This document shows positions 716 through 30,892 of a DNA stretch of 64,000 bases, one piece after another; position 1 is the stretch's first letter, and every line of letters starts with the position of its first letter. Source of the stretch: an uncultured Thermoanaerobaculia bacterium. GTDB taxonomy: Bacteria; Acidobacteriota; Thermoanaerobaculia; Multivoradales; J023. The stretch lies in NCBI GenBank assembly GCA_964565225.1, contig CAZMEL010000002.1, forward strand, positions 12,648 through 76,647, read 5' to 3'. The notes beneath the pieces were generated by a model that saw only the letters and a list, made by a program, of their open reading frames with translations, was not told the origin of the DNA and made no database searches. Position numbers and translations under genes: made by a program.

Positions 716-1552
716 ATGAGAATCTACAAAGTCTTGCCGGACCTCTCGAAGGAACGGCATATGAAGATCTGGCACAAAGCGTTGCGCTCCCAGTGGTCGG
801 CCGCCGACCTCAAATGGGACACGCCCCACCGGATCACCAGCCGGAAGCTCAAGGACCAGCTGGCGCGGATTCTGACCCCGATCCTGATGGGTGAGCAGGC
901 GGCGCTCTATTCGGTCTCGGGCCTGATTCCGGTGCTCGGCCAGCGCTCGGAGGTGGAGAGCCAGTTCTACCTCACCACCTGGGCGGTGGACGAAGCCCGC
1001 CATACCGAGCTCTTCGCCAGGTTCTACCAGCGGCTCGACCGCGAGCCCATGTCGATCCGGCGCTTTCCCGCCGGCTACCTCTTCCAGAGCAAGATCGTCT
1101 CCCAGGAGCCGGCCGAGTGGCTGGCCGGGGTGCTGGTGAGCGAAGTGCTTGCCAAGCTGGTGATGGAAGAGTTCCGCCGACTCGACATCGATCCACTGCT
1201 CAGCGAGATCTCCGACGGCATCCTGCTCGACGAGGCTCGCCACCTCGGCTTCAACCACATCTACCTGGAAGACCGGTTCAGCGGAATGTTCCAGACCGGC
1301 TCGGAAGAGGGCAGCAACTACTCCTCCACCCTGCACGAACGCCTGCAGGATGTGCTCGCTGGCGTCTCGCCGATCTTCCAGGCGCTCGAGACCGAGCTGC
1401 GGGAGATCGGAATCGACACCGAGGAGATCACCGCCAAGCTCGGCGAAGAAGCCGCCTGGCGGCTGGAAAAATCGATTCAAGCCGGACGCCGCGTCGCGGC
1501 GGGAAAGAGCGCGGCGAGCAACCCTCAGGAAGCCGAGCTGATCGGCAGCTGA
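716..1552 (+). CDS. ferritin-like diiron-carboxylate protein (acyl-ACP desaturase/AurF-like oxygenase family), 278 aa
   Basis: Two DEARH (ExxH-type) motifs about 90 aa apart (DEARHTELF, DEARHLGF), typical of soluble diiron oxygenases/desaturases. Lies immediately upstream of FAAL-ACP. Confidence 0.55.
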   Translation: MRIYKVLPDLSKERHMKIWHKALRSQWSAADLKWDTPHRITSRKLKDQLARILTPILMGEQAALYSVSGLIPVLGQRSEVESQFYLTTWAVDEARHTELFARFYQRLDREPMSIRRFPAGYLFQSKIVSQEPAEWLAGVLVSEVLAKLVMEEFRRLDIDPLLSEISDGILLDEARHLGFNHIYLEDRFSGMFQTGSEEGSNYSSTLHERLQDVLAGVSPIFQALETELREIGIDTEEITAKLGEEAAWRLEKSIQAGRRVAAGKSAASNPQEAELIGS

Positions 1553-1596
1553 CGACCCCTTCGACTCGGGTCTCTTCGACGCCGAGCGGCGAAATC

Positions 1597-3297
1597 GTGC
1601 ATCCCATCTTCTCCGATCCACCTGCCCACCTGCCGGCGGCTCTGCGCTCGGCGGCAGCCAGCTTTCCCGAACGGACGGTCTCGATCTTCGACGGCCGGGG
1701 CCGCTCGCACGAGCGGCGAACCTTCCCCGAGCTCCTCGCCGCCGTCGAGCGCACCGCAGGGCGTTGGGCCGCTCTCGGGGTCCGACCCGGAGATCGGGTG
1801 GTCCTGACCCTGCCGACCTCTTGGAGCTGGCTCGAGGCCTGGTTCGGCGCCATGCTCTGCGGCGCTCTGCCCGTGGCCATGGCGCGTGGCCCGGCCATGG
1901 GAGCGGCGCTGGCACACCTGCAGAAGGTCGAGAACCTGGTGCAGCGGCTCGACGCACGGTTCCTCCTCGCCAGCGCCAGCTACCGGGAAGAAGCCGCAAG
2001 GGCGGGCGCCGAGCATTCGGCCCGGATCTGCCTCTCGGCCGAAGCGCTGGCGGGCACGACCCCGGCCCGGGTGGTCGCTCCGGAACCGGAGCCCGACGAC
2101 ATCGCCTTCCTGCAGCTCACCAGTGGCTCGACGGGGTTTCCGCGGGCGGTGATGATTCCGCACCGCGCCGCGATCCACAACGCGATGGCGAGCGACGTCG
2201 CCATCGGCGCGCCGCATGGAGCCCCGACCCACGCCTGGGCGGACTCCATGGTCTCCTGGCTGCCGCTGCACCACGACATGGGCCTGGTGGGGTGCCTGCT
2301 GCTCTCTCTGATGGCGGGGCACGATCTCTACCTGTTCCAGCCCAGCACCTTCCTCGCCCGGCCGCGGCTGTGGCTCGAGCACCTGGGCCGCCACGGCACA
2401 TCCTTCGCACCGGCGCCGAACTTCGGCTACCAGCTGTGCCTCGAGCGGCTGAAGCCCGGCGACCTCGAAGGTCTCGACCTCTCCTCCTGGCACGACGCCA
2501 TGACCGGCGCCGAAATGATCCGGCCCGAAACCGTGAGAGGCTTCTGCGAAACCTTCGCGCCGGTGGGATTTCGCCCCGAGGCGTTTCGACCCTGCTACGG
2601 ACTGGCGGAAGGAACCCTGGCGGTGACCTTCGATCTCCGCGGCCAGGGGATGCGAACCCGGCCTCTGCCCGGCGACGCCGACCCGCTCGCCGCCGCCGCC
2701 CTGGGTGGCAACGAGGTGGTGTCGGTAGGGGTTCCGATCGCCGACACGGAGGTGCGGATCACCGGGCCCGACGGCTCACGACGGCGCGACGGCGAGATCG
2801 GCGAGGTGAGAGTCCAGGGCCCGAGTATCTTCGCCGGCTACTACAACGATCCGGAAGCCTCCGCCCAATGCCTCCAGAACGGATGGCTGCTCACCGGCGA
2901 CCTCGGGTTCCAGCACGAGGGAGAGCTCTACCTCACCGGCCGGGTCAAGGATCTGATCATCGTGCGCGGCCACAACCTCATGCCGCACGAGATCGAGTGG
3001 CTGGCCGAAGAGGTGACCGGCGGCGGCGGCGCCCTGCGGTCCGGAGCTTTTGCCGTTTCCCACGGCGCGGGCGGTGAGGAAGCCGTGCTGGTGGTCGAGG
3101 CGGAGACCCGTGATCGCAACCGGCTCGAACCCCTGGCCGAGGAGATCCGCAGCCGGATCGGCCGCACCCTCGGCCTCCCGCTCGCCGACCTCGTCTTCGT
3201 GCGACGCGGCAAGATTCCCAAAACCACCAGCGGTAAGGTGCAACGACGCCAGTTGCGCGACCTCTACCTGCGGGGAGAGATCGAGCAGCTGGGCTGA
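1597..3297 (+). CDS. fatty acyl-AMP ligase (FAAL) / long-chain acyl-CoA synthetase family
   Basis: In-frame GTG at 1597 within ORF 1117..3297. Adenylation motifs LTSGSTGFPRAV, WLPLHHDMGL, YGLAEGTLAV, TGDLGF, GR.KD and a C-terminal TTSGKVQRRQLR. FAAL-like insertion region present. Confidence 0.8.
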   Translation: MHPIFSDPPAHLPAALRSAAASFPERTVSIFDGRGRSHERRTFPELLAAVERTAGRWAALGVRPGDRVVLTLPTSWSWLEAWFGAMLCGALPVAMARGPAMGAALAHLQKVENLVQRLDARFLLASASYREEAARAGAEHSARICLSAEALAGTTPARVVAPEPEPDDIAFLQLTSGSTGFPRAVMIPHRAAIHNAMASDVAIGAPHGAPTHAWADSMVSWLPLHHDMGLVGCLLLSLMAGHDLYLFQPSTFLARPRLWLEHLGRHGTSFAPAPNFGYQLCLERLKPGDLEGLDLSSWHDAMTGAEMIRPETVRGFCETFAPVGFRPEAFRPCYGLAEGTLAVTFDLRGQGMRTRPLPGDADPLAAAALGGNEVVSVGVPIADTEVRITGPDGSRRRDGEIGEVRVQGPSIFAGYYNDPEASAQCLQNGWLLTGDLGFQHEGELYLTGRVKDLIIVRGHNLMPHEIEWLAEEVTGGGGALRSGAFAVSHGAGGEEAVLVVEAETRDRNRLEPLAEEIRSRIGRTLGLPLADLVFVRRGKIPKTTSGKVQRRQLRDLYLRGEIEQLG

Positions 3298-3328
3298 AGG
3301 CCCGGCACCGCGATTCGGAGACACGACC

Positions 3329-3571
3329 ATGTCATTCCAAACCAAAGCCCTGAAGATTCTCGCCGAGATCAGCGGCAAAGACGCCGACGCCATCACTCCC
3401 GACATGGAGCTGGTGGCTCACTTGAACATCGACTCTCCACAGGCCCTGCAGCTCCTCGTGGCCCTCGAGGAGGCCTTCGACATCGAGATTTCCGACGAAG
3501 ATGCCGCCAAGATGGACACCGTGCAAGACGTTCTCGGCTACCTCCAGAACGCCAATCTCGGCACCGCCTGA
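3329..3571 (+). CDS. acyl carrier protein (80 aa)
   Basis: ATG at 3329 in the frame of ORF 3050..3571. LNIDSPQALQLL phosphopantetheine-attachment Ser context. Small acidic 4-helix protein. Confidence 0.75.
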   Translation: MSFQTKALKILAEISGKDADAITPDMELVAHLNIDSPQALQLLVALEEAFDIEISDEDAAKMDTVQDVLGYLQNANLGTA

Positions 3572-3600
3572 TCCCTCGCCGCTCACCCGGCCGTTCTCGC

Positions 3601-4314
3601 GTGCGCCTGATCAAACATCCCCGAGTCGCCCCGGTGCTGCTCTCGGTCGGCTCGTGGATTCTTCGCGCCATTCTCTGGCTCTCGATCCGCACCCTTCGCC
3701 TCGAGGTGGTGGCCGGACGGGAGCATCTCCAGAGCTTCTACGACAACCCCCGGCCGGTGGTGATGAGCTTCTGGCACAACCGGGTGTTTCTGGCGGCTCG
3801 CTTCGTGCTCCGAGATCTGTTTCGCGAAAACATCGAGGTCTCGGTGCTCGCCAGCCAGTCGCGCGATGGCGAGCTGGTGGCCAAGACCGCGCGGTTCTGG
3901 CGCCTCCACACCATCCGCGGCTCCGCCACCCGTGGCGGCCGCCAGGCCCTGCGGTCTCTCTACCGGGCGATTGTCGAGCGAGGCTCCTCGCCGGTGATGA
4001 TTCCCGACGGGCCCCATGGCCCGATCTACGAATTCAAGGTGGGGGTCGCCGTGCTCGCCCAGATGACCCAGGCTCCGATCCTGCCCCTGGGGCTCGCCGC
4101 CCGGAGCTTCTGGCGAATCGGATCGTGGGACCGCCTCATCGTGCCCCGCCCCTTTACCCGAATCGCTCTCGCGGTGGGCCCGATGCAGACCATTCCGCGG
4201 GGGCTCTCGACCGAAGAGCTGGAGAGCCGGCGGCAAGAGCAACAAAACCTCCTCGACGAGCTGACTCTGCAGGCCGAGGCGGCCCTCGGGGTCGACGACA
4301 GCTCCCGGAGCTGA
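3601..4314 (+). CDS. lysophospholipid acyltransferase-like protein (DUF374/LPLAT family)
   Basis: GTG start. N-terminal TM helix then an LPLAT-like core (SFWHNRVF.., DG..G.R) resembling lipid A / lysophospholipid acyltransferase-like DUF374 proteins. Confidence 0.6.
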   Translation: MRLIKHPRVAPVLLSVGSWILRAILWLSIRTLRLEVVAGREHLQSFYDNPRPVVMSFWHNRVFLAARFVLRDLFRENIEVSVLASQSRDGELVAKTARFWRLHTIRGSATRGGRQALRSLYRAIVERGSSPVMIPDGPHGPIYEFKVGVAVLAQMTQAPILPLGLAARSFWRIGSWDRLIVPRPFTRIALAVGPMQTIPRGLSTEELESRRQEQQNLLDELTLQAEAALGVDDSSRS

Positions 4315-4320
4315 CCCGCC

Positions 4321-7300
4321 ATGGCTCGGGATCCCTCCGCTCCCGACCGATTTCTGGAGCGCTGCCTGCTGCTCGACCTGGAGACCACTCGCGCTCCCGA
4401 GGGTTCCGGCCCGCCTCGGATTCTCGCGCTCGGCGCCGCCCTCGGACCCGGTGGCCCGGAAGTGACCCGCCAGGGCCGGTTCGATCTCGCAGCGGCCCTG
4501 GAGGAGCTCGACGAGCTGGCAGCCGGCGCCGATTTCCTGCTCGGCCACAACCTCCTCGATCACGATCTGCGAGTCCTCGAGAAGGTCGCACCCGACCTCG
4601 CGCTCCATCACCTGCCGGTGGTCGACACTCTTTTCCTGTCTCCCCTCGCCTTTCCGGAAAATCCCTACCACCACCTGGTGAAGGACTACAAGCTCGTCCG
4701 CCAGGAGCTCAACAACCCGCTGGCCGACGCGCGACTGGCGGCCCGGGTCTTCCGAGATCAATGGGTGCGGCTCGCGCAACGGGCCGAGCGAGAGCCCGGA
4801 GAGCTCGCCTTCTACGCCACCTGCTTCGCTTCCGTCCCCGAGGGCCGGGGGATCGCCGAGGCTCTGAGCACCATCGGCGGGGAGGCTCCGCTCTCGGTAC
4901 CGGAAGCCGCCGAGCTCCTGCTCCACCGGCTCGCCCATCGGGTTTGCCGCCGTGCCCTGCGCCAGCTGGCTCTCGACGGGTTTCGTCCCACGCCGCCCTG
5001 GGCCTACGCCGTGGCCTGGCTGCAGGTGGCGGGCGGAAGCTCGGTGCTCCCGCCGTGGGTGCGTTACCGCCATGGCCAGGTGATCGAGATCCTGGCCGAG
5101 CTTCGCGAGCATCCGTGCCACGAAGCCGGCTGTGCTTTCTGCCGCACCAGCCACGATCCCGAAGCCCAGCTCCAGCGGTTTTTCGGATTCCCGGCCTTCC
5201 GACCTCGGCCGGCCACGCCGGACGGCAAGAGCCTGCAGCGCGAGATCGTGACCGCCGGCCTCGAAGGGCGCCCGCATCTGGCGATTCTCGCCACCGGTGC
5301 CGGAAAGTCGATCTGCTTCCAGCTGCCGGCCCTCGTGCGCCACCAGCGCCGCGGGCTCCTGACCCTGGTGATCTCGCCCTTACAAGCCCTGATGAAGGAC
5401 CAGATCGACCACCTGAACGCCGCCACCGGTGCTTCCTCGGCGGCAGCCCTCTACGGCCTGCTCTCGCCGCCGGAGCGAGGGCGGGTGCTCGAAAAGGTCC
5501 GGCTCGGCGACGTGGCAATTCTCTACATCGCCCCCGAGCAGCTGCGGAACCGTTCGTTTCTTCGCGCGGTGAGGTCGAGAGAGATCGCCGCCTGGGTGTT
5601 CGACGAAGCCCACTGTCTCTCCAAGTGGGGCCACGACTTTCGCCCGGACTACCTCTACGCCGCGCGCTTCCTCCGCGAGCTGGCGACGAGCCAGGGCGTC
5701 TCTCCGCCACCGGTGATGGCGTTCACCGCCACGGCCAAGGCTTCGGTGCGCCAGGAGATCCTCACCCACTTCGCCGAGGAGCTCGGGCAGGAGCTCCAGG
5801 TGTTCGAAGGGCCGGTGGAACGGGAGGAGCTCGGCTTTCGGGTCGAGGAGATCCGCGCGGCAGAGAAGATCGCCCGGATCCGTGATCTGCTGCAAGCGAC
5901 CCTCGGCGAGCTCCCCGACGCCTCGGCGGTGGTCTATTTCAGCAGTCGGCGCGGTGCGGCCAGAGGGGCCGAGCTCCTGCAGCAGCAGGGCATCGCATCC
6001 GGAGTCTTCCACGGTGGTCTTCCCGCTCCCGAAAAACGTGAGGTTCTCGACGACTTCGTTTCCGGACGCCTGCCGGTGGTCTGCGCCACCAACGCATTCG
6101 GGATGGGCATCGACAAATCCGACGTTCGGCTGGTGGTGCACGCCGATATCCCGGGATCCCTGGAGAGTTATCTCCAGGAAGCCGGACGGGCGGGCCGCGA
6201 CCGGCAGCCGGCGGAGTGTGTGCTGCTCTTCGACCCCGAGGATCTGGAGCACCAGTTCAAGCTCCAGGCCGGCTCTCACCTCAGCCGAAGGGATATCGCG
6301 CAGATTCTGCGCGCCGTGCGCAATGCCCGCGACAAGGCTCGGCGAGCGCGGACCCGCCGGGAGCAGACCGGCCGGTCCGCTCCCGATCCGAGTCTGGTGT
6401 GCCTGACCACCGCCGAGCTGCTGCGAGACCATGGGGCGGAGACCGAGTTCTCCCGAGACGACTGGCAGGCCGACACCAAGGTAAAGACCGCGATCGCCTG
6501 GCTCGAGCGCGCCGGTTTTCTCGAACGAGAGCTCAACCGGACCCACGTCTTCCAGGGCAAGCTCTCGGTCGACAGTCTGGCCGCCGGACGCCGGGAGATC
6601 GACCGCCTGGCGCCGACGCTCGGTCTGCGAAATGCCGATCGAAGACGCTGGACGGCGATCCTGGCCGCGTTGATCCACACCGATCCCGATCGCGGGCTGA
6701 CCGCCGACGAGATCGCCGAGCTCCCCGACGTGCGCTGGGAGCCGACCCCGGGGGATCGCGACCACCCGAGCCAGCGGGTGTTGCGAATCCTGAACACCAT
6801 GGCGGAGGTCGGCCTGCTGAAGAGTGGCCTCCAGCTCACCGCGACCCTGCATCTCGGAGGCGCGAAATCTTCGCGACGCGCCTTCGCGAGCCTGTGTGCT
6901 CTCGACAAGGCCTTGCTCGACCTGCTGGCCGAAACCGAGCCCGACGCCGAGGCGGGGGACTGGCTGGAGCTTTCGCTCCGGCTGGTGAACCAGCGGTTGA
7001 TCGACCGCGGTTTCTCCCAGAGCAACCCCACGCTTCTGCGCAAGCTCCTGCAGGGCCTGGCGGAGAGCGGTGGCACCGGTCGAGGTCTCCTGGAATGGTC
7101 CTACCGCTCGCGCTTTCGTTATCGCCTCCGACTGCGCAGCCCCTGGGGCGATCTGCACGATGCCGCGGAGCGCCGCAGGGCCCTGGGCCAGCTGGCGCTC
7201 GACCGTCTGCTCGCCGCGGTGCCTTCCGGCACCCGAGGCCGGGTGCTCGTGGAGCTCGGCCTCGAGGATCTCACCGACACCATACGCCGAGATCTGGTGT

Positions 7301-9591
7301 TGCGGACCCAGATCGACGATTTCGTGGCCGCTGCCGAGCAGGGCCTAATGTTCCTGCACGAGCTCGGGGTGATTCAGCTGCAGAGTGGCCTCGCCGTGTT
7401 CCGCCAGGCCATGACCCTGCGCCTGCGTGGCGAGGCCAAGGGCCGCCGCTATGGATCGCGCGACTACGAGGCCCTCGACCAGCACTTCTCCGAGCGCACC
7501 TTCCAGATCCACGTGATGGCGAGATATGCCCGCCTGGGGATCGAGGCGATCCAGGGAGCCCTGGCGTTCGTGCAGGACTACTTCCAGCTCGCCCGCGATT
7601 CTCTGGAGCAGCGGTACTTCTCCGGCGAAGAGGCCACCTTGGCGCGGGCGACCGACGAGGCTTCGTTCCTACGGATCGTAGAATCCCTCGGCGACCCGGC
7701 ACAGATGGCCCTGGTCACCGCTCCCCCGGAGCGCAACCTGCTGGTCATGGCCGGCCCGGGCTCGGGCAAGACCCGGGTGGTGGTGCACCGCTGTGCCTAT
7801 CTGTTGCGAGTGGCCCGAATCCCGGCCCGCCGCATCGCGGTGCTGTGTTTCAATCGCAACGCCGCTCTCGAGCTGCGCCGCCGCCTGAAGGCACTCGTGG
7901 GCGACGACTGTCGGGGAGTGACGGTCTCGACCTACCACGGCCTCGCCATGCGCCTCACCGGAACCTCCTTCGCAACCCTCGCCGAGGCCTCGACCCGGTC
8001 TCTCGAGCCGCCGAATTTCCAACGCCTGATCGAAGACGCCGTGGATCTGCTCCGGGAAGACACGAGCCGAGCCGGGCTCACGGCCGATGAGATTCGCGAG
8101 GAAATCGCCTCGAGCTACAGCCACCTGCTGGTCGACGAATACCAGGACATCAACGAAGCCCAGTATCGGCTGGTCTCTGCCCTCTCCGGCCGCACCGAGA
8201 GCGACCGCGACCGCCGGCTCTCTCTGCTCGCGGTCGGAGACGACGACCAGAACATCTACAGCTTCACCGGTGCCGACGTGGGTTTCATCCGCCGGTTCCA
8301 GGACGACTACGAGGCCGAGGTTGCCTACCTGGTGGAGAACTACCGCTCGACGGGCCACATCATCGCGGCGGCCAACTCGTTGATCGCTCGAGATCCCCAC
8401 CGGATGAAGGCCGAGCATCCCGGCGAGATCTGCTCTCTCAAACGCCAGGATCCACCCGGTGGTCCATGGACCACCCGAGACCCGGAGACCGAGGGTCGGG
8501 TGGTGATCCGCGAGGTTCCCGACCGGGAGACCCAGGCCGCGGCGGTGGCCGAAGAGTTGTTCCACATGAAACATCTCCACCCGGAGCTGGAATGGCACCA
8601 GGTCGGAGTGCTCGCCCGACAGCACGACGTGCTCCAGCCGGTTCGCGCCGTGCTGGAGCATCGAGGCATTCCGGTGGCCTGGTCTCATTCCTCGGGCTCC
8701 TTGCCGCCTCTCCATCGCATTCGAGAGATCACGAGGGTGCTCGATACCCTGGCCGCGAGTCGCCGAGAGCTCGTCTCTCCGGCTCACCTTCTCGCTGCCT
8801 CGGCAGCTGCACCCGAGAATCCCTGGTTTTTCTTGCTGGACGAGCTGATCCGGGAGTGGGTCGTGCAGTCGGGAGAAGGCCCGGCGCCCGCGGGATCGAT
8901 CCTGGAATTCCTCTACGAAGCCCTCGCGGAGAGAGGGCGAGCCGCCAGCACCGGGACGGGAGTGCATCTGCTGACCGTACACTCGGCCAAAGGCCTGGAG
9001 TTTCCCGGTGTCCTGCTGCTCGACGGAGGCTGGAGACATGGACCGAATCGCAGCGGCAGGGACGGCATGGAAGAGGAGCGGCGCCTCTACTACGTGGGGA
9101 TGACCCGAGCCAAGGAGCGGCTCGTTCTCTTCGAGTCGGGCGTCCGCCCGAATCCCCACTCGGCCTCCCTGGGTGGGCCGGCGATCCACCGATCCCGTGC
9201 CCGACCGTCGCCGATCCCCTCCTCCATCGCCGGCCGCCGCTTCGTACTGCTCGGCCTGCGCGACCTCTATCTGAGCTTCGCCGGTCGCCGGCCGGAGGGG
9301 GATCCGATCCATCGGCGGCTCGCGAGCCTCGAAACCCATCGCTCCGTTCAGCTGGCCTCTCGAAACGGCCAGGTGGTGGTGCTCGACGGGACGGGCCAGG
9401 TCGTCGCGGCTCTTTCGTCTGCGTCCGCCGAGAGCTGGAGCCAGCGGCTGGAGCAGATCGAATCCGCCCGGGTGGTCGCCATGGTGCGGTGGCGGGCCGA
9501 GGACTCCGACGCCGCCTATCGGCGCCAGCTGCGCTGCGACCGTTGGGAGGTCCCGGTGCTCGAGCTCACCCTCCGGCCATCGAAGCGGTGA
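4321..9591 (+). CDS. giant multidomain protein: DnaQ-like 3'-5' exonuclease + RecQ-family SF2 helicase + UvrD/PcrA-family SF1 helicase (1756 aa)
   Basis: N-terminus has LLLDLETT...GHNLLDHDLRVL (DEDD exonuclease motifs I/II). The RecQ core has TGAGKSICFQLPAL, the hallmark FDEAHCLSKWGHDFRPDY and QEAGRAGRD. The UvrD core has all motifs: AGPGSGKT, VDEYQDIN, YSFTGAD, ENYRST, HSAKGLEFPGV, YVGMTRAKERL. A linker of about 490 aa and a C-terminal extension of about 180 aa are of unknown fold. Confidence 0.85.
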   Translation: MARDPSAPDRFLERCLLLDLETTRAPEGSGPPRILALGAALGPGGPEVTRQGRFDLAAALEELDELAAGADFLLGHNLLDHDLRVLEKVAPDLALHHLPVVDTLFLSPLAFPENPYHHLVKDYKLVRQELNNPLADARLAARVFRDQWVRLAQRAEREPGELAFYATCFASVPEGRGIAEALSTIGGEAPLSVPEAAELLLHRLAHRVCRRALRQLALDGFRPTPPWAYAVAWLQVAGGSSVLPPWVRYRHGQVIEILAELREHPCHEAGCAFCRTSHDPEAQLQRFFGFPAFRPRPATPDGKSLQREIVTAGLEGRPHLAILATGAGKSICFQLPALVRHQRRGLLTLVISPLQALMKDQIDHLNAATGASSAAALYGLLSPPERGRVLEKVRLGDVAILYIAPEQLRNRSFLRAVRSREIAAWVFDEAHCLSKWGHDFRPDYLYAARFLRELATSQGVSPPPVMAFTATAKASVRQEILTHFAEELGQELQVFEGPVEREELGFRVEEIRAAEKIARIRDLLQATLGELPDASAVVYFSSRRGAARGAELLQQQGIASGVFHGGLPAPEKREVLDDFVSGRLPVVCATNAFGMGIDKSDVRLVVHADIPGSLESYLQEAGRAGRDRQPAECVLLFDPEDLEHQFKLQAGSHLSRRDIAQILRAVRNARDKARRARTRREQTGRSAPDPSLVCLTTAELLRDHGAETEFSRDDWQADTKVKTAIAWLERAGFLERELNRTHVFQGKLSVDSLAAGRREIDRLAPTLGLRNADRRRWTAILAALIHTDPDRGLTADEIAELPDVRWEPTPGDRDHPSQRVLRILNTMAEVGLLKSGLQLTATLHLGGAKSSRRAFASLCALDKALLDLLAETEPDAEAGDWLELSLRLVNQRLIDRGFSQSNPTLLRKLLQGLAESGGTGRGLLEWSYRSRFRYRLRLRSPWGDLHDAAERRRALGQLALDRLLAAVPSGTRGRVLVELGLEDLTDTIRRDLVLRTQIDDFVAAAEQGLMFLHELGVIQLQSGLAVFRQAMTLRLRGEAKGRRYGSRDYEALDQHFSERTFQIHVMARYARLGIEAIQGALAFVQDYFQLARDSLEQRYFSGEEATLARATDEASFLRIVESLGDPAQMALVTAPPERNLLVMAGPGSGKTRVVVHRCAYLLRVARIPARRIAVLCFNRNAALELRRRLKALVGDDCRGVTVSTYHGLAMRLTGTSFATLAEASTRSLEPPNFQRLIEDAVDLLREDTSRAGLTADEIREEIASSYSHLLVDEYQDINEAQYRLVSALSGRTESDRDRRLSLLAVGDDDQNIYSFTGADVGFIRRFQDDYEAEVAYLVENYRSTGHIIAAANSLIARDPHRMKAEHPGEICSLKRQDPPGGPWTTRDPETEGRVVIREVPDRETQAAAVAEELFHMKHLHPELEWHQVGVLARQHDVLQPVRAVLEHRGIPVAWSHSSGSLPPLHRIREITRVLDTLAASRRELVSPAHLLAASAAAPENPWFFLLDELIREWVVQSGEGPAPAGSILEFLYEALAERGRAASTGTGVHLLTVHSAKGLEFPGVLLLDGGWRHGPNRSGRDGMEEERRLYYVGMTRAKERLVLFESGVRPNPHSASLGGPAIHRSRARPSPIPSSIAGRRFVLLGLRDLYLSFAGRRPEGDPIHRRLASLETHRSVQLASRNGQVVVLDGTGQVVAALSSASAESWSQRLEQIESARVVAMVRWRAEDSDAAYRRQLRCDRWEVPVLELTLRPSKR

Positions 9592-9643: not shown

Positions 9644-10933
9644 ATGCTCGATTTGCGGATCCATCGCTCTACCCTCCTTCTTCTTCTCCTCGGCACCTGC
9701 CTGTGCCTCGCGCTCCCGGCCAGCGGACGAGCAGCGAGCTCGAACGAAGACCTGGCCCAGACCCTCGACGAGTACCTGCGGTCCCGGGTCTCCCATGGCT
9801 TCAGCGGTGCGGTGCTGGTGGCCCACGAGGGTGAGATCGTGCTGCGCCGCGGCTACGGGACGGCGGATCCGGAGAGTGGAGCCCCCATCACCGCGGAGAC
9901 GGTCTTCGACATCGGCTCGATCACCAAACCATTCACCGCCGCGGCGATTCTCGCGCTCGAGATGGACGGCAAGCTCTCGACCGTCGACGATCTCTACCGC
10001 TGGCACCTTGCCCTCGAGTCCGACGCCATTCTCTCGCGAGAGGCGAAGAGCAAGCTCTTTGCTCCCCACGTTCCCTGGGCGGGGCGCAGAGATGTCTTCT
10101 ACGGCTTCGGCTGGGAGGTCGCCAAGACCCCGAGGGGCACTCGGGTTCTCCGCCACAGCGGCGGGAGCGTCGAAGGGGTCAACGGCGTGGTGCAGAGGTT
10201 TGTCGACGAAGACCTGGTGGTGATCGGCCGGCCCGCCATCTTCTCGCTGCCCGCGGCCCTGGAGCGCAGAGCTCTCGGCCCCTTGCGTGTCCTCTTCGTG
10301 GGCAACAGCCAGACGTCGTGGAACGATGTACCGGCCCTCGTCGAGAGCCTGGCGGCCGCGTCGAGTGGCCTGGAGATCGACGCGACGGCATCGACTCGCG
10401 GGGGCGAGACTTTGATGGGCCACTCCGACCGCACCGACGACGACGCTCCACTCGCGATGATGGCCAAGGGCGGCTGGGACTTCGTGGTCCTCCAGGAGCA
10501 CGGCGGTCACCTCGCCGCGGGCGGCGGCTCGACCTTCACCGCCGCCTCCCGCCTCGTACGGGCCGCCAGAGAGGCGGGCGCCCGACCGATTCTCTACTCC
10601 ACCTGGGCGAGGAGGTCGAAGCCGGAGACCCAGGCTCGGATCACCGAGACCAACCGACAGCTCGGGGAGCGTCTGCAGGTGGCGGTCGCCCCCGCGGGCG
10701 AGGCGTTCCGGCGCCTGCGGGCCACAAATCCCGGCATCGAGCTCTATCGCGACGACGAGATCCACGGGAATTTCGCCGGTGGTTACCTGGCGGCCTGTGT
10801 GCTGTTTTCTACTCTCTTCGGCCAGAGCGCCGAAGGCCTTCCCACCGACTCTGCGAGCCGCGACGTCCTTGCGCCGGAGATCGTACAGATTCTGCGCTCC
10901 GAAGCCTGGGCCGCCGTTTCGACTTTTCGTTGA
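9644..10933 (+). CDS. secreted two-domain hydrolase: degenerate beta-lactamase/PBP-like N-domain fused to SGNH/GDSL-type esterase
   Basis: Signal peptide (LLLLLLGTCLCLALPASG). SxxK motif SITKPF and HSGGS (KTG-like), but the middle of the beta-lactamase fold is missing. C-terminal half has VLFVGNSQT (SGNH block I) and DDEIHGN (DxxH catalytic block). Confidence 0.6.
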   Translation: MLDLRIHRSTLLLLLLGTCLCLALPASGRAASSNEDLAQTLDEYLRSRVSHGFSGAVLVAHEGEIVLRRGYGTADPESGAPITAETVFDIGSITKPFTAAAILALEMDGKLSTVDDLYRWHLALESDAILSREAKSKLFAPHVPWAGRRDVFYGFGWEVAKTPRGTRVLRHSGGSVEGVNGVVQRFVDEDLVVIGRPAIFSLPAALERRALGPLRVLFVGNSQTSWNDVPALVESLAAASSGLEIDATASTRGGETLMGHSDRTDDDAPLAMMAKGGWDFVVLQEHGGHLAAGGGSTFTAASRLVRAAREAGARPILYSTWARRSKPETQARITETNRQLGERLQVAVAPAGEAFRRLRATNPGIELYRDDEIHGNFAGGYLAACVLFSTLFGQSAEGLPTDSASRDVLAPEIVQILRSEAWAAVSTFR

Positions 10934-12003: not shown

Positions 12004-13305
12004 ATGACCTCGACCAACGCGACCCACGATCCTCAGCTCCGCAGCTTCGTCGAGTCCGCCAACCAACCGGGCAACGACTTCCCGATCCAGAACCTGCCCT
12101 TCGGGGTCTTTCGCCAGGGAGACGACGACCGGGTCGGTGTCGCCATCGGCGACCAGATCGTCGACGTGTACCGGCTCAAGGAGCTCGGCCTGCTCACCGC
12201 TGAGGCCGAAGAAGCCGCCAGGGCCTGCGCCGGCCCCACCCTGAATCCCCTCATGGGTATGGGGCCCGAGGCGTGGAGCGCTCTGCGGGCGGCTCTCTCT
12301 TCTCTTCTCCGCGCAGACAGCCCGGAGCGTGAAACGGTGAGCCGGGCCCTGGTGCCCATGGACTCGGTGGAGCTCCAGGTGCCCGCCGACATCGGCGACT
12401 ACACCGACTTCTACTGCTCGATCCATCACGCGACCAATGTCGGCAGCATGTTCCGGCCCGACAACCCGCTGATGCCCAACTACAAACACCTGCCGGTGGG
12501 GTACCACGGCCGCAGCTCTTCGATCGTCGCCAGCGGCGCTTCCGTGGTGCGTCCACACGGCCAGACCCTGGCCGACGGTGCCGATGCTCCGACCTTCGGC
12601 CCGTCGCGCCTGCTCGACTACGAGCTGGAGGTCGGGTTCTACGTCGGCCCCGGCAACGCCATGGGCCGGTCGATCCCGCTCGAGGACGCCGAGTCCCAGC
12701 TCTTCGGCTTCTGCCTGGTGAACGACTGGTCGGCGCGGGACATCCAGAAGTGGGAGTACCAGCCCCTCGGACCCTTCCTGGCCAAGAGCTTCGCCACCAC
12801 GGTGTCTCCCTGGGTGATCACCAACGAGGCCCTGGCTCCGTTCCGGGTGCCGGCCTTCGAGCGGGCGGCGGACGATCCGAGCCCACTGCCCCACCTCGAT
12901 TCCGAGGGCAATCGCCAGCACGGCGGGATCGATATCGATCTCGAGGTCTACCTGAGCACCGAGACCATGCGCAGCCAGGGGGTCGCACCGCACCGCCTGA
13001 GCCGGGGAAACTTTCGCCACATGTACTGGACCGCGGCCCAGATGCTCACCCACCACGCCGCGGCGGGCTGCAACCTGCGGCCCGGCGACCTGATGGCCAG
13101 CGGCACGGTGTCCGGCCCGGAGAAGGACTCCCGCGGCTGCCTGCTCGAGCTGACCTGGCGAGGGAGCGAGCCCATCACCCTCCCCACCGACGAGGTGCGA
13201 CGATTCCTGCAGGACGGCGACGAGGTGATCCTGCGCGGCTCCTGCCAGCGCGAGGGTGCGGCTCGGATCGGTTTCGGCGAGTGCCGAGGGATCGTCGGAG
13301 GCTGA
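12004..13305 (+). CDS. fahA: fumarylacetoacetase (fumarylacetoacetate hydrolase)
   Basis: 433 aa. N-terminal FAH domain (NLPFGVF), catalytic core DYELEVGFYVGPGN, FGFCLVNDWSARDIQKWEYQPLGPF. Confidence 0.85.
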   Translation: MTSTNATHDPQLRSFVESANQPGNDFPIQNLPFGVFRQGDDDRVGVAIGDQIVDVYRLKELGLLTAEAEEAARACAGPTLNPLMGMGPEAWSALRAALSSLLRADSPERETVSRALVPMDSVELQVPADIGDYTDFYCSIHHATNVGSMFRPDNPLMPNYKHLPVGYHGRSSSIVASGASVVRPHGQTLADGADAPTFGPSRLLDYELEVGFYVGPGNAMGRSIPLEDAESQLFGFCLVNDWSARDIQKWEYQPLGPFLAKSFATTVSPWVITNEALAPFRVPAFERAADDPSPLPHLDSEGNRQHGGIDIDLEVYLSTETMRSQGVAPHRLSRGNFRHMYWTAAQMLTHHAAAGCNLRPGDLMASGTVSGPEKDSRGCLLELTWRGSEPITLPTDEVRRFLQDGDEVILRGSCQREGAARIGFGECRGIVGG

Positions 13306-13311
13306 GCGATC

Positions 13312-15288
<1,977 letters not shown>

Positions 15289-16889: not shown

Positions 16890-17453
16890 TTGCTGCGATT
16901 CATCGTCCTCGCACTCCCTCTGCTGATCCTGCTGCTGGCGCTCTTCGGTTTCACCGTGGAGATTCTGGATCTCGAGCCGCGGAATGGCTCGGTGGTCAAG
17001 CTGGCGGTTCTCGAGCCGCCCCTGGTGCCGGAGCCCCTGGTGCTCGGAGCCTGGCTGGTGGAAGCCTGCGGCCTGGTGGCGCTCTTCCTGATGACCCAGG
17101 GTCGCTGTGGGCGATGGTGGCTCGATGGCCTGGTGGCTGGCTGGCTGGCCTGGATCTTCCGCGGCCCGCTGCTCGTGATCACCATCGTGGTCGCGGTTCG
17201 CCAGCCCCAGGAGCCCTGGTGGACCCTCGCGTTCGGCTGGTGGGTGCTCTACTCCGCCTGTGGCCTGACGCTCGCCTGGCTGGCCCGGCGCACCGAGCTC
17301 GATGCCGAGCTGGAAGCCGAGAGGGCCGAAGAGGCCGAATGGACCGAGGTCGTGGAGGAGGAAGAGAAGCCGGAAGAGCCGGAAGCCGAATCGATTTCGG
17401 AAACGGAAGAAGACACGACACCCGAACCGAAGCCAACTCCCGGAGAAACCTGA
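16890..17453 (+). CDS. hypothetical integral membrane protein with acidic C-terminal tail
   Basis: TTG start. 4 predicted TM helices, Trp-rich segments, C-terminal EEAEWTEVVEEEEKPEEPEAESISETEEDTTPEP. Fills the gap between protease and PKS. Confidence 0.4.
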   Translation: MLRFIVLALPLLILLLALFGFTVEILDLEPRNGSVVKLAVLEPPLVPEPLVLGAWLVEACGLVALFLMTQGRCGRWWLDGLVAGWLAWIFRGPLLVITIVVAVRQPQEPWWTLAFGWWVLYSACGLTLAWLARRTELDAELEAERAEEAEWTEVVEEEEKPEEPEAESISETEEDTTPEPKPTPGET

Positions 17454-17455
17454 TC

Positions 17456-18502
17456 TTGCGCATTGCAGCCGTCGGCAAGGCCTTGCCGCCCCACTACTAC
17501 GGCCAGGAAGAATTGCTCGCGGCATTCAAGGATCAATGGAACCAGCAACACTACAACCCCGAGCGACTCGATCGGCTGCACAAGAATGTGCTGGTCGGTG
17601 GCCGCCATTTGGCTCTGCCGATCGAGGCCTATGACGAGCTCGAGACCTGGGGCCAGGCCAACGACCAGTGGATCCGGGTTGCCCAGGAGGTAGGGGCCGA
17701 GGCGATTCGCGACGCCGTGGAGCGCTCCGGGCTCGGCTGGGATCAGATCGGCGCGCTGTTGACGGTCACCGTCACCGGAGTGGCGACTCCTTCCCTCGAC
17801 GCACGCCTGATGAACCGCCTGGAGCTTCCGCGAGACCTTCGCCGGGTGCCGATCTTCGGCCTCGGCTGTGTCGCCGGAGCGGCCGGCATCGCCCGGGCGG
17901 CCGACCTCGTGGCCGGGACCCCGGAGAAGGCCGCGATTCTGCTCTCGGTCGAGCTCTGTTCCCTGACTCTCCAGAGGCGCGACCTCTCGATTCCGAATCT
18001 CATCGCCACCGGTCTCTTCGGCGACGGTGCCGCGGCGGCGGTGGTGACAGGAGCCGAGATCGATGCCGGCGGCCCCGAGGTGGTCGCGACCCGCTCGGTC
18101 TTTTATCCCGAGACCGAAGAGGTGATGGGCTGGCGGATCTCCGAAGAGGGTTTTCGCATCGTGCTCTCGGCCGATGTGCCGAACATGGTGAGCGACCATC
18201 TCCGCCAGGACGTGGACTCGTTTCTTGCCGAACATGGGCTGACCCGCGACGAGATCGCCGCCTGGATCTGCCACCCTGGAGGCCCGAAGGTGCTCGCGGC
18301 GATGGAAGAGTCCCTGGAGCTCCCCGCCGACGCCCTGGAGCCCACCTGGCGCAGCCTGCGAGAGGTGGGCAACCTCTCTTCGAGCTCCGTGCTGCTGGTG
18401 CTCCGTGAGATCCTCGACACCCCGCCCGGACCCGGTGAACATGGGCTGCTGCTGGCCATGGGGCCGGGGTTCTGCTCCGAGCTGGTGCTCCTGAGGTGGT
18501 GA
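17456..18502 (+). CDS. type III polyketide synthase (chalcone/stilbene synthase family; alkylresorcinol/alkylpyrone synthase-like)
   Basis: About 348 aa from a TTG near 17456. Active-site Cys in GLGCVAGAAG, His in ICHPGGPKVL, Asn in GNLSSSSVL, and CHS-like N-terminus RIAAVGKALP. Confidence 0.85.
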   Translation: MRIAAVGKALPPHYYGQEELLAAFKDQWNQQHYNPERLDRLHKNVLVGGRHLALPIEAYDELETWGQANDQWIRVAQEVGAEAIRDAVERSGLGWDQIGALLTVTVTGVATPSLDARLMNRLELPRDLRRVPIFGLGCVAGAAGIARAADLVAGTPEKAAILLSVELCSLTLQRRDLSIPNLIATGLFGDGAAAAVVTGAEIDAGGPEVVATRSVFYPETEEVMGWRISEEGFRIVLSADVPNMVSDHLRQDVDSFLAEHGLTRDEIAAWICHPGGPKVLAAMEESLELPADALEPTWRSLREVGNLSSSSVLLVLREILDTPPGPGEHGLLLAMGPGFCSELVLLRW

Positions 18503-18503
18503 A

Positions 18504-19094
18504 TTGAGCGACCTCGTTTCCGATAGCCGGTTCTGGTTTCTCGGCTTGATCGGCCTCGTGGTGCTGGAGCGCCTCGGCGAGCTGGTGATCACCCGCCGCA
18601 ACGCTCGTAGCCTCGAAGCGCGGGGCGGGTTCGAGGTGGGTGGAGAGCATTTCGGCGTCATGGCCTGTTTGCACACGGCATTCCTCGTGGCAGGTCCGCT
18701 GGAGGTATGGCTCCTCGATCGCTCCATGCTCCCCGTGATCTCCTGGCTCGCCCTCGGCCTCGTGGCCCTCACCATGGCGCTGCGCTACTGGGCGATCTTC
18801 AGCCTCGGCGATCGCTGGACGGCCAGGGTCTACGTGGTGCCCGGGGAGCCTCCCGTCTCGGGCGGGCCCTACCGCTACCTCCGCCACCCCAACTATCTCG
18901 CCGTCATCGTGGAGATCGCCGCCCTACCCCTGGTGCACGGGGCCTGGATCACCGCCTTCGTCTTCTCTCTCGCCAACGCCGCGATGCTCCGCACCCGGAT
19001 TCGTGTGGAAGAAAAAGCGCTCGCGGAACACTCGAATTACGGGAGTACCATGGGCTCGAAAGCACGTTTCGTCCCGGGAACCCACGGAGACTGA
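18504..19094 (+). CDS. isoprenylcysteine carboxyl methyltransferase (ICMT)-family membrane methyltransferase (SrsB/ArsD? -like O-methyltransferase)
   Basis: TTG start 2 nt after the PKS stop. Multi-TM. Conserved C-terminal RHPNY..E motif (YRYLRHPNYLAVIVE). Confidence 0.7.
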   Translation: MSDLVSDSRFWFLGLIGLVVLERLGELVITRRNARSLEARGGFEVGGEHFGVMACLHTAFLVAGPLEVWLLDRSMLPVISWLALGLVALTMALRYWAIFSLGDRWTARVYVVPGEPPVSGGPYRYLRHPNYLAVIVEIAALPLVHGAWITAFVFSLANAAMLRTRIRVEEKALAEHSNYGSTMGSKARFVPGTHGD

Positions 19095-19097
19095 GCC

Positions 19098-19349
19098 TTG
19101 AGCAGACAGGCGGCCACGGACATCGAGTCGGCCATTGCCGAGCTCGCTCGGAACAAGCTGAGCCTCGAACGAGACCTTCACCCGAGCCTGCGGCTGGCGG
19201 AGGATCTCGGCCTCGACTCCATCCAGCTCCTGACCCTCGCCACCGAGGTGGAAGACCACTTCCGAGTTCGCCTCGACGAGGCCGACGAGATCTCCATCGA
19301 GACGGTGGGCGACTTGATCGCCGTGGTGGAGCAGAAGCTTGGTTCCTGA
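19098..19349 (+). CDS. acyl carrier protein (83 aa)
   Basis: LGLDSIQLLTL phosphopantetheinylation site. Acidic helical protein. Translationally coupled to the flanking genes. Confidence 0.75.
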   Translation: MSRQAATDIESAIAELARNKLSLERDLHPSLRLAEDLGLDSIQLLTLATEVEDHFRVRLDEADEISIETVGDLIAVVEQKLGS

Positions 19350-21117
19350 AACCCTGATCGATCTCCTGCGGCAGGCCCACAGGTACCACGACACGGGCCT
19401 GCGATTTCTCGACCGCCGAGAAGACGAGACCTTCCATTCCTGGGCCGAGCTCGCGGAGACGGCTTCGGAAGTCGCCGGAAGCCTGATCGCCGTCGGCATT
19501 CGTCCGGGCCAGAGAGTGGCGTTGATCTACCCCACCGAGGTGGCCTTCTTCCATGCTTTCTTCGGAATCTTGCTCGTCGGCGCCGTTCCGGTTCCTCTCT
19601 ATCCGCCGGCCAGGCTCGGCCGCCTGGAGGAATACCACCGTCGTACCGCCGCCATGGTGCAGGCTTCGGGCGCCGAGCTGATCCTCACCTCTGCCACCGT
19701 ACGCCGACTGCTCGGTCGCACCATCGAGCTCGCCGATCCGCCGCTGGGTTGCCTCACTCTCTCGGAGCTGCCGCGATCGGCCCCGGCGGAAGCCCAGCCC
19801 ACGAAGGATGATCTCGCCCTGGTGCAGTTCTCGTCGGGTACCACGGTGGACCCCAAGCCGGTGGCGCTCTCCCACCGCGCGATCCTGGCCCAGGTCGACA
19901 TGCTCAACGGCAACTGGCCCAAGACCGGACCCGTGCAGCACTCCGGGGTCAGCTGGCTGCCTCTCTACCACGACATGGGTCTGATCGGCTGTATCTTCCC
20001 CGCTCTCGAGCGACCGGGAACCCTGACCCTGATCGGCCCGGAGGTCTTCGTGACCCGGCCGGCGATCTGGCTGCGGGCCATCTCCCGTTTCCGCGCCACC
20101 ATCTCCGTGGCACCCAACTTCGCCTACGGCCTCTGTGTCGAGAAGATCGAAGATCGAGAGATCGAAGGGATCGATCTCGGCTCCTGGCTGGTCGCTCTGA
20201 ACGGCGCCGAGCCCGTGGCTCCCGCCGTGCTGCGGCAGTTCCTCCAGCGATTCGAGCCCTACGGGTTTCGCCCCGAAGCCCTGACCCCTGTCTACGGTCT
20301 CTCCGAGGCAACTCTGGCCGTCACTTTCTCCGACCTCGACCAGCTCTTCCGTTCCGAAACCTTCGATCGGACCCAGCTGGCGTCCGAGGATCGGGCGGTT
20401 GCCACGAGCGACGGCCTCGAGCTGGCCTCGGTCGGCCGACCCCTGCCAGGCGTCACTCTGCGAATCGTCGACGAGCAGGGTGTCGAGCTGGAGAACGACC
20501 GCGTGGGCCGGGTCCTGGTGCGCAGCCCGGCCCTGATGGACGGATACCTCGGCCGCACCGAAGCCACCCGTGCGACCTTTCGCGAGGGTTGGCTCGATAC
20601 CGGAGACCTCGGCTTCCTGCACGAAGGGGAGCTGTACCTCACCTCCCGGGCCAAGGATGTGGTCATTCTGCGGGGCCGGAACCACTCACCCGCCGAGATC
20701 GAGCAGGCCATCGATCGAGTGCCCGGAGCGCGCATCGGCTGTTCCGTTGCGGTGAGCCGACAGCCCGAGAACGGACCCACCGAGCAACTGCTGCTATTCG
20801 TGGAGCACCGCCGAGAGGCTCCGGAAGAGCAGGTCCGGAAGCTACCCGAAGAGTGCAGAGCCGCGGTGGTGGCTGCCACCGGCCTGCGTGCCGACGAGGT
20901 GGTGGTGCTTTCGCCCGGCACCCTACCCAGAACCTCCTCGGGCAAGCTCCGGAGACGCGAGGCGCTCACTCTCCATCTCCGCGGAAAGCTCCAGCCTCCC
21001 CGTGCCGTGACCCCTCTGCTGCTCGCCGGTGCCATGGCGAAGTCGTCCCTGACTCTCTGGCGCCACAAGGTGCGGAAGAAGCGGCGGCCGGCTCGGCGGC
21101 GAGACTCGGACCGTTGA
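19339..21117 (+). CDS. fatty acyl-AMP ligase (FAAL) family adenylating enzyme
   Basis: TTG start overlapping the ACP stop. Motifs FSSGTT, WLPLYHDMGLIG, YGLSEATLAV, TGDLGF, LRGRN and C-terminal TSSGKLRRRE. Paralogous to the FAAL at 1597. Confidence 0.8.
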   Translation: MVPETLIDLLRQAHRYHDTGLRFLDRREDETFHSWAELAETASEVAGSLIAVGIRPGQRVALIYPTEVAFFHAFFGILLVGAVPVPLYPPARLGRLEEYHRRTAAMVQASGAELILTSATVRRLLGRTIELADPPLGCLTLSELPRSAPAEAQPTKDDLALVQFSSGTTVDPKPVALSHRAILAQVDMLNGNWPKTGPVQHSGVSWLPLYHDMGLIGCIFPALERPGTLTLIGPEVFVTRPAIWLRAISRFRATISVAPNFAYGLCVEKIEDREIEGIDLGSWLVALNGAEPVAPAVLRQFLQRFEPYGFRPEALTPVYGLSEATLAVTFSDLDQLFRSETFDRTQLASEDRAVATSDGLELASVGRPLPGVTLRIVDEQGVELENDRVGRVLVRSPALMDGYLGRTEATRATFREGWLDTGDLGFLHEGELYLTSRAKDVVILRGRNHSPAEIEQAIDRVPGARIGCSVAVSRQPENGPTEQLLLFVEHRREAPEEQVRKLPEECRAAVVAATGLRADEVVVLSPGTLPRTSSGKLRRREALTLHLRGKLQPPRAVTPLLLAGAMAKSSLTLWRHKVRKKRRPARRRDSDR

Positions 21118-30093: not shown

Positions 30094-30892
30094 CCGCCTC
30101 GACCAGGGTCTCGGACAGGCGATCGAAGATCCAGGCTCCCACCAACCAGACCACCAGTCCCACGGCGAGCATGATCAGCCAGGAAGAAAGCTCCGGAATC
30201 CGCCCTTCGAAGAGCAACGCCTGGTAGGCCTCGGTGAAGGGGGTCATCGGATTGAGCGCCACCAGGCGATAGACCCAGGGATATCCCTTCAGAGTATTCA
30301 GGGTGTAGAGGATCGGAGTCATGAAAAAGAGCAGGGTCAGGAGATTCGACAGAATGTCCTTGACGTCCTTGAAGTGCACGTTGAGCGCGGCGAAGCTCAG
30401 GGTCAGCCCCCCCACCAGCGGAATCTGCAGCAGCACCACCAACGGCGCCATCAGCCCGTTCCAGCCACCTACCTCCAGTCCCTTCTGACGAAAGTAGAGC
30501 GAGCCGACCACGACCACCGGCAGGGCGAATGCGAAGTGCACCAGATTGGCAAATACCGAGACCATCGGCAGGATCTCCGCCGGGAAGGACGCCTTGCGGA
30601 TCAGGCCCGAGTTGGCCAGCAGGGTATTGGTCCCCTCCATCCAGGAGGTCGAGACCCACAGCCAGGGAAAGACACCGGTGGCGAGGAAGAGAGCGTAGGG
30701 AGTGACGTTCGGATCTCTCGGCTGGAAGATGGTACCGAAGACGAACGCGTAGACCACCAGCAGGAGAATCGGGTTCACCAACGACCAGACATACCCCAAC
30801 GCGGAGCCTCGGTACCGGGCCTTGAGCTCCCGAGCGGTCAGGGTGAGCAGCAAGCTGCGATAGCGAAATAGGCGAAGGGCGACGCGGAGCAT
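30089..30892 (-). CDS. ABC-2 type transporter permease (Wzm/TagG-like)
   Basis: N-terminal LFRYRSLLLTLTARELKARYRGS.LGY.WS..NP signature of ABC-2 permeases, 6 TM. Start MLRVAL chosen, though the ORF extends to 30982. Confidence 0.75.
   Translation of the reverse strand: MLRVALRLFRYRSLLLTLTARELKARYRGSALGYVWSLVNPILLLVVYAFVFGTIFQPRDPNVTPYALFLATGVFPWLWVSTSWMEGTNTLLANSGLIRKASFPAEILPMVSVFANLVHFAFALPVVVVGSLYFRQKGLEVGGWNGLMAPLVVLLQIPLVGGLTLSFAALNVHFKDVKDILSNLLTLLFFMTPILYTLNTLKGYPWVYRLVALNPMTPFTEAYQALLFEGRIPELSSWLIMLAVGLVVWLVGAWIFDRLSETLVEAV

Follow-up and report, generated by a model that had tools for sequence, protein, structure and literature searches.

We identified a cassette of four co-directional genes in a 64,000-nucleotide stretch of contig CAZMEL010000002.1 from an uncultured Thermoanaerobaculia bacterium; this whole stretch is referred to below as the window. 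The cassette spans window positions 716-4314 on the forward strand (~3.6 kb) and encodes a ferritin-like diiron (or Mn/Fe) oxidase, a fatty acyl-AMP ligase (FAAL), a dedicated acyl carrier protein (ACP) and an acyltransferase of the DUF374/LpxJ family. We propose, with about even confidence, that the cassette is a private acyl-delivery line through which lipid A, or an envelope glycolipid close to it, receives its late (secondary) acyl chains. The closest relatives of the sequence are metagenome-assembled genomes (MAGs) of Thermoanaerobaculia (Acidobacteriota).

An earlier note on this DNA had described the four genes, their coordinates and intergenic gaps of, in order, 44, 31 and 29 nt, all of which were reproduced by a check of the open reading frames (ORFs). 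Searches of Pfam, NCBIfam and the PDB bore out the identities that it had assigned to the diiron protein, FAAL, ACP and DUF374 protein, and its logic of transfer from FAAL to ACP to acyltransferase holds. The public annotation of a 99%-identical 286-kb contig matches our gene coordinates, except that the DUF374 gene starts 33 nt later (3634) and encodes 226 aa. No terminator-like sites were seen between the four cassette genes. The upstream neighbour of the cassette is the end of thrB.

The acyltransferase contains a DUF374 domain (Pfam accession PF04028; E 3e-21, 75.1 bits against a gathering cut-off of 26.8). DUF374 is LpxJ, a lipid A 3'-secondary late acyltransferase that is a non-orthologous replacement of LpxM and is known from Helicobacter, Campylobacter, Wolinella and Rickettsia (PMC6148475). 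Mutation identified W60, H61, D86, D132, W172 and D173 as essential residues of R. typhi LpxJ (PMC6148475). Their counterparts in the window protein, assigned by motif and spacing rather than by direct alignment to LpxJ, are W58, H59, D89, D136, W176 and D177. These residues are invariant in 30 homologues, with spacings of 30/47/40 in the window protein vs 25/46/40 in the R. typhi enzyme. Like LpxJ, the window protein lacks the HX4D/E motif: NRVFL comes after H59, which leaves no acidic residue at +5.

The N-terminal helix of the DUF374 protein is hydrophobic. Its AlphaFold2 (AF2) model (predicted local distance difference test (pLDDT) 90) has the fold of the lysophospholipid acyltransferase (LPLAT) type, with Foldseek matches to PlsC (5kym, E 7e-7), PatA (5oce/5f2z, E 4e-6) and GPAT. 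The likeness to LpxJ thus extends from the Pfam family to the WH/D/D/WD motifs with their matching spacing, the missing HX4D/E motif and a PatA/PlsC-like predicted fold. No dedicated ACP, FAAL or oxidase is reported to accompany the characterised LpxJ enzymes, whereas the window enzyme belongs to a conserved ACP-DUF374 pair that, judged by its gene context, appears to be fed by a FAAL.

The ligase that would feed this pair matches the AMP-binding family in Pfam (E 6e-58), and its top NCBIfam model is the FAAL model PRK09192 (E 1e-121, 407 bits vs a cut-off of 600). Its 18 best PDB matches (E 5e-79 to 1.7e-38) are all FAALs or FAAL domains, including those from an olefin synthase (7r7e), E. coli (3pbk) and Legionella (3kxw) as well as FadD23/32/28. 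The first CoA ligase appears at E 2e-27, more than ten orders of magnitude worse. With regard to the FAAL-specific insertion that blocks CoA use, a sequence alignment matches residues ~336-385 to the FAAL domain 7r7e with short gaps only. The adjacent ACP matches the PP-binding family (E 8.5e-11) and falls narrowly under the cut-offs of NCBIfam ACP models; its phosphopantetheine serine is S36, within D35-S36-P. A gene 31 nt downstream of the FAAL gene, with a DS(36)P site, would provide the ligase with a cognate carrier.

The four genes are syntenic in related genomes, as the earlier note had anticipated. We fetched 39 genome and 52 metagenome loci that contain the diiron gene, along with the contexts of DUF374 homologues, and removed near-identical loci to obtain 86 independent loci (numbered with the prefix L), among which the diiron proteins are 56-85% identical. 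Where the sequence extends at least 400 nt past the diiron gene (67 loci), FAAL comes directly after it on the same strand in 44, and these 44 orthologues show 45-68% identity. Among 35 FAAL-linked loci that extend at least 2.3 kb downstream, 26 have an ACP gene; this count is an underestimate, as ACP-sized ORFs 3' of FAAL in L084 and L094 were overlooked by tblastn. Of 30 FAAL-linked loci that continue for at least 3.2 kb, 16 encode DUF374, and 18 encode either DUF374 or an LpxL-family enzyme. This gene order is far beyond chance.

All genes around the core vary between loci. Flotillin/NfeD, Ser/Thr kinases, YcaO/TfuA and adenylosuccinate lyase, as well as the pair of fumarylacetoacetase and acetoacetyl-CoA synthetase, were rejected as parts of the system on this ground. 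The core genes are themselves separable, and L044 and L045 contain an ACP-DUF374 pair without FAAL. Because the parts recombine among loci, we regard the four genes as a linked network of two tight pairs, diiron-FAAL and ACP-acyltransferase.

Two other arrangements were observed at the ACP gene. In L044 (7803-9978) and L045, which lack the diiron gene as well as FAAL, genes for a 496-aa GMC-family FAD oxidoreductase and for a 132-aa protein without a Pfam match lie 5' of the ACP-DUF374 pair; these two proteins may be an alternative chain-tailoring pair. On the short metagenome contigs L085 (549-1773) and L086 (1508-2800), the diiron gene is followed directly by ACP, with no FAAL between them.

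Related loci also connect the FAAL-ACP core to lipid A. In the Holophagae locus L035, the slot of DUF374 after FAAL-ACP is taken by a Lip_A_acyltrans protein of the LpxL/LpxM family (Pfam accession PF03279, E 4e-52), which also matches the NCBIfam lipid A lauroyl acyltransferase model (E 1e-41). The diiron gene of L035 lies 2.2 kb beyond the Lip_A_acyltrans gene and is convergent with a gene for an MsbA-like exporter (TIGR02203, E 9e-156, under the trusted cut-off). An MsbA-like exporter adjoins the diiron gene in the same convergent arrangement in L026, L030 and L081-L083. In L099, a Lip_A_acyltrans gene lies directly 5' of diiron-FAAL-ACP-DUF374, and in L098 the four genes are preceded on the same strand by genes for a sugar transferase, a GT2 protein, Lip_A_acyltrans and an ABC exporter. 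Members of the Lip_A_acyltrans family are also encoded nearby in L036, L084 and L094.

That two unrelated late-acyltransferase families are associated with one FAAL-ACP core is what would be expected of a core that feeds late lipid A acylation. The earlier note had proposed that the acyltransferase delivers its chain to a lipid acceptor. The lipid target stands, but the DUF374 protein is not an orphan LPLAT. Since DUF374 is the LpxJ family, and since LpxL/M-family and MsbA-like genes occur in related loci, the sequence evidence suggests that the window enzyme most likely acts on lipid A.

The first gene of the cassette encodes a protein whose sole Pfam match is AurF (Pfam accession PF11583, 41.3 bits vs a cut-off of 29.6). 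Its two DEARH motifs (D92-H96 and D172-H176) are invariant across 28 homologues along with E60 and E143. The predicted metal ligands (E60, E93, H96, E143, E173 and H176) form a 2-His/4-carboxylate set. In Foldseek searches with the AF2 model (pLDDT 88), the best fold match is R2lox (template modelling (TM) score 0.6-0.75, E 4e-6), followed by ADO (TM 0.45-0.62) and RNR R2. PDB sequence searches likewise place R2lox nearest (E 5e-7) and return ADO weakly (E 1e-3 to 0.03); identity to R2lox/ADO is ~16-22% only. By fold match and invariant ligands, the protein has a ferritin-like fold with a 2-His/4-carboxylate dimetal site.

This diiron family is narrow, tightly conserved and uncharacterised. 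Every one of 442 close homologues comes from Acidobacteriota or Planctomycetota MAGs. In a library clustered at 50% identity, the protein has one full-length cluster, with the next relatives at ~33% identity. Its distant relatives (~30% identity) are annotated as hypothetical or ferritin-like proteins, all of them uncharacterised. In profile searches, the less conserved C-terminal helices (residues 190-259) weakly match amphipathic helices from apolipoproteins A-I and E (E 0.07-0.7); the C-terminal helices may form a lipid- or membrane-contacting surface, or the match may be due to chance.

The diiron protein shares with R2lox and ADO, its nearest solved relatives, a ferritin-like four-helix core and the 2-His/4-carboxylate dimetal site, but we assign it to neither family. 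The cross-link residue Val72 of GkR2loxI aligns with an invariant Ala63 (the Tyr162 position is not reliably alignable), and R2lox models score 48 bits against cut-offs of at least 194 (194 for the curated NCBIfam model NF006200, which is matched by residues 9-110 only). No ADO family is among its Pfam matches. In both R2lox and ADO, C16-C18 fatty ligands sit at the metals; researchers who work on R2lox still call its function and substrate undetermined (PMC9314684).

Other candidate identities were also rejected. Despite the passing score for PF11583, the protein is not an AurF-type N-oxygenase, as the third His ligand of such enzymes (3 His/4 carboxylate) is replaced by Ile169; no AurF or CmlI chains appeared in PDB sequence searches or among the 50 Foldseek matches listed. 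The motifs QExxH and HxxDExxH define CylC-type halogenases (PMC12101540). Both are absent here, with D92-EARH and I169-LLDEARH in their place, which makes the CylC-type halogenation that the earlier note had entertained unlikely. Cyanobacterial CylA/CylB/CylC modules do resemble the cassette in combining a FAAL, an ACP and a ferritin-like diiron enzyme that is AurF-like in Pfam; they differ in their halogenase motifs (3 His/3 Glu, where the window protein has Ile169 for the extra His), in a downstream polyketide synthase (PKS) that the cassette lacks, and in the taxa that encode them. Coq7, MiaE and acyl-ACP desaturase were found neither in Pfam, NCBIfam or PDB sequence matches nor among the 50 Foldseek matches listed. 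The diiron protein thus shows no match to a housekeeping family of the kind that the earlier note had named as a refutation, and its nearest solved relatives bind long fatty chains. With AurF-type N-oxygenation and CylC-type halogenation both set aside, the most reasonable chemistry is that of a hydroxylase, a desaturase or an ADO-like enzyme acting on a long aliphatic chain.

With the gene identities, catalytic residues, folds and conserved linkage established, we infer from them the acceptor, the acyl chain, and the reaction and timing of the oxidase. Judged by its family, the FAAL would adenylate a free long-chain fatty acid and load it on the dedicated ACP, at the phosphopantetheine arm. 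The membrane-associated LpxJ-type DUF374 protein would move the acyl group from ACP to a lipid hydroxyl, as suggested by its family, its catalytic residues and the neighbourhoods in related lineages. By precedent, this acceptor would be the 3-OH of the 3'-linked primary chain of lipid A, and the product an acyloxyacyl unit. In the least certain step, the soluble dimetal oxidase would use O2 to hydroxylate or desaturate the chain, either as free acid or as acyl-ACP. The transferred chain would in that case already carry the oxidation, much as LpxO 2-hydroxylation leaves an oxidised chain after transfer.

The earlier note had placed the oxidase on the ACP-bound chain. This is weakened by our analysis, as the diiron gene is tied most tightly to FAAL rather than to the ACP and acyltransferase genes; the free fatty acid is no less likely as the substrate. 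We lean slightly, and with low confidence, toward the free acid, because of this tighter tie, because several diiron-FAAL loci lack ACP between or behind the two genes and because R2lox and ADO bind free fatty ligands. A bolder version of the proposal is possible though doubtful: that the diiron protein founds a new class of R2lox/ADO-like oxidases, whose oxidised fatty acid passes through FAAL/ACP to an LpxJ- or LpxL-type enzyme and becomes a modified secondary chain of lipid A.

Parts of this scheme have precedents. In Rhizobium and Legionella, the dedicated ACP AcpXL and a late acyltransferase, LpxXL, add a very-long hydroxylated chain to lipid A. As proposed here, a private ACP passes a special, oxidised chain to a late acyltransferase, and loci L035, L098 and L099 even contain a partner of the LpxL/LpxXL family. 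The AcpXL chain, however, is built on the ACP by dedicated fatty-acid-synthesis enzymes, whereas the FAAL of the cassette would load a pre-formed free fatty acid, and the window acyltransferase belongs to the unrelated LpxJ family. LpxO, which 2-hydroxylates the lipid A secondary chain after transfer, is an Fe/2-oxoglutarate dioxygenase. It gives the type of product proposed here, an oxidised 3'-secondary chain, but is not homologous to the cassette proteins.

Several observations weigh against a lipid A acylation line of this composition. The top fold match of the DUF374 protein, PlsC, is a phospholipid enzyme, and the assignment to LpxJ rests on Pfam family, motifs and spacing rather than on direct alignment to a characterised LpxJ. 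The lipid A core genes lpxA/C/D/B/K and waaA were not found beside the cassette in the window, and the MsbA-like and FAAL matches are under the NCBIfam trusted cut-offs. In about half of diiron-FAAL loci, an acyltransferase gene is lacking nearby. The cassette carriers are all uncultured. A solitary clade of diiron genes (65-73% identical; L001, L008, L037 and others) is never adjacent to FAAL, and in L043, L046 and L047 the orthologous FAAL-ACP-DUF374 triads (FAAL identity 62-65%) have no diiron gene beside them. Given these last two patterns, the oxidase may have a separate role and is better regarded as an accessory part of the system than as its core.

Taken further, the same patterns would make the FAAL-ACP-acyltransferase triad the functional unit and the diiron gene just a common neighbour with a function of its own, such as the alkane or aldehyde oxidation proposed for R2lox and ADO. 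Such independence would account for the triads that lack the gene, for a 9.3-Mb genome in which 1.5 Mb separate diiron gene and triad, and for the clade that is never beside FAAL and has an atypical aldehyde dehydrogenase as neighbour in three loci. We nevertheless consider it unlikely. FAAL is directly 3' and on the same strand in the 44 of 67 loci described above, at 56-85% diiron protein identity and in MAGs labelled as two phyla, and diiron-FAAL spacers stay short while all other surroundings vary. FAAL-linked diiron sequences stand apart from the solitary clade in a neighbour-joining tree. Three MAGs contain one FAAL-linked and one solitary copy, which makes the solitary clade a paralogue rather than a counter-example.

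The surroundings of the solitary clade were also recorded. The atypical aldehyde dehydrogenase is ~600 aa long, and in two of the three loci that have it (L001 and L008) an AsmA/DUF748-like protein is encoded as well. These neighbours hint at a related lipid or aldehyde role for the paralogue.

A second alternative leaves the linkage intact and changes the acceptor from lipid A to phospholipid. E. coli Aas is an acyl-ACP synthetase fused to a 2-acyl-GPE acyltransferase; it uses the housekeeping ACP and has a canonical HX4D LPLAT domain. An Aas-like pathway for membrane repair or fatty-acid salvage would use FAAL and ACP to activate exogenous or released acids and DUF374 to re-acylate lysophospholipids, with the oxidase either unrelated or conditioning the acid. 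Both systems would take a free fatty acid through acyl-ACP into membrane lipid chemistry, and the coupling of synthetase to LPLAT acyltransferase in Aas, the structural match of the DUF374 model to the lysophosphatidic acid acyltransferase PlsC, the lack of lipid A genes beside the cassette in the window and a faint match to the Aas model PRK08043 (E 0.087) are all in keeping with this idea. Aas is not homologous to the cassette proteins, however, and the curated PRK08043 model scores 11 bits vs a cut-off of 886. In related loci, LpxL/M-family enzymes replace or flank DUF374 and MsbA-like exporters adjoin. The characterised members of DUF374 all act on lipid A (PMC6148475). On balance we find an Aas-like salvage pathway a rather poor prospect.

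Least probable, and in our view improbable, is that the cassette makes a secondary metabolite or an acyloxyacyl lipid other than lipid A (an aminolipid or another glycolipid), with FAAL-ACP as starter module and DUF374 as O-acyltransferase: natural-product pathways classically begin with FAAL-ACP pairs, L099 has a class-III aminotransferase and a short-chain dehydrogenase/reductase after DUF374, L098 has sugar transferases, and phosphatidylinositol mannoside acyltransferases also belong to the Lip_A_acyltrans family, but no PKS, nonribosomal peptide synthetase or amino-acid N-acyltransferase is conserved beside the cassette in the loci examined, and the type III PKS cluster of the window has its own FAAL and ACP. 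We also rejected the OlsH/OlsI ornithine-lipid route, the third described for these lipids, at which a faint ACP match (NF052616) hinted; the enzymes of the known route, one GH3-like and the other an alpha/beta hydrolase, are unrelated to the cassette proteins.

The features of the window are listed in Table 1. The type III PKS cluster (17114-21117) is a second lipid cluster, whose gene set resembles FAAL/ACP-primed alkylresorcinol/alkylpyrone clusters such as Myxococcus ftp and Streptomyces srs.

Table 1. Features of the window, with their positions, strands and details.
Feature	Position in window	Strand	Details
Ferritin-like diiron (or Mn/Fe) oxidase	716-1552	+	ATG start, 278 aa
FAAL (fatty acyl-AMP ligase)	1597-3297	+	GTG start, 566 aa
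Dedicated ACP	3329-3571	+	ATG start, 80 aa
DUF374 / LpxJ-family acyltransferase	3601-4314	+	GTG start, 237 aa
RecQ-type + UvrD-type helicase fusion	4321-9591	+	1756 aa
Beta-lactamase-like gene	9644-10933		
Fumarylacetoacetase and acetoacetyl-CoA-synthetase-like ligase	12004-15288	+	
Type III polyketide synthase	17114-18502	+	second lipid cluster
ICMT-family methyltransferase	18504-19094	+	second lipid cluster
ACP	19098-19349	+	second lipid cluster
Second FAAL	19339-21117	+	second lipid cluster; 36% identical to cassette FAAL
MMPL/RND-type lipid transporter	24886-27129	+	
Wzt-type ABC ATPase	28785-30971	-	Wzt C-terminal domain

Immediately downstream of the cassette, the gene for a giant RecQ/UvrD helicase fusion begins 6 nt past the DUF374 stop codon. 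A gene of this kind also lies 3' of DUF374 in L041, L043, L044 and L045, and a UvrD-like gene lies 5' of FAAL in the Holophagae loci L026 and L035. This adjacency could be conserved lineage synteny or co-transcription; we saw no functional link. The genes for fumarylacetoacetase and the acetoacetyl-CoA-synthetase-like ligase are found 3' of the cassette, past one unannotated gene, in L005, L006, L011 and L021. Because the pair trails the cassette in these loci, the helicase gene and the beta-lactamase-like gene look inserted in the lineage of the window.

Farther downstream, the window encodes an MMPL/RND-type lipid transporter and a Wzt-type ABC ATPase, the latter of which suggests that the organism exports an O-antigen-like polysaccharide. 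The G+C content is ~0.64-0.69 in window positions 1-28000 and falls to ~0.54-0.63 in 30000-64000; this drop could reflect an island, a mis-assembly or local gene content.

The earlier note knew of no pathway with this exact gene set, and our literature searches on DUF374, LpxJ and FAAL with lipid A, together with a 2025 FAAL review, likewise turned up no such pathway. They yielded neither an account of a FAAL/ACP-fed LpxJ or LpxL system nor one of this oxidase family.

Outer membrane permeability is set by the acyl chains of lipid A. In described pathways, the late acyltransferases that complete these chains use the ACP pool of fatty acid synthesis or, in rhizobia, AcpXL. If the proposed function of the cassette is correct, a FAAL and a private ACP would constitute a new supply line of free fatty acid to the late acyltransferases of lipid A, and this supply line would apply to abundant uncultured Acidobacteriota and Planctomycetota. 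Should the oxidase act in the same line, it would provide an LpxO-independent, pre-transfer route to oxidised lipid A. The R2lox-related ferritin-like oxidase family would gain a testable partner and substrate class, and the cassette would offer the first genomic handle on the role of fatty-ligand-binding R2lox-like proteins.

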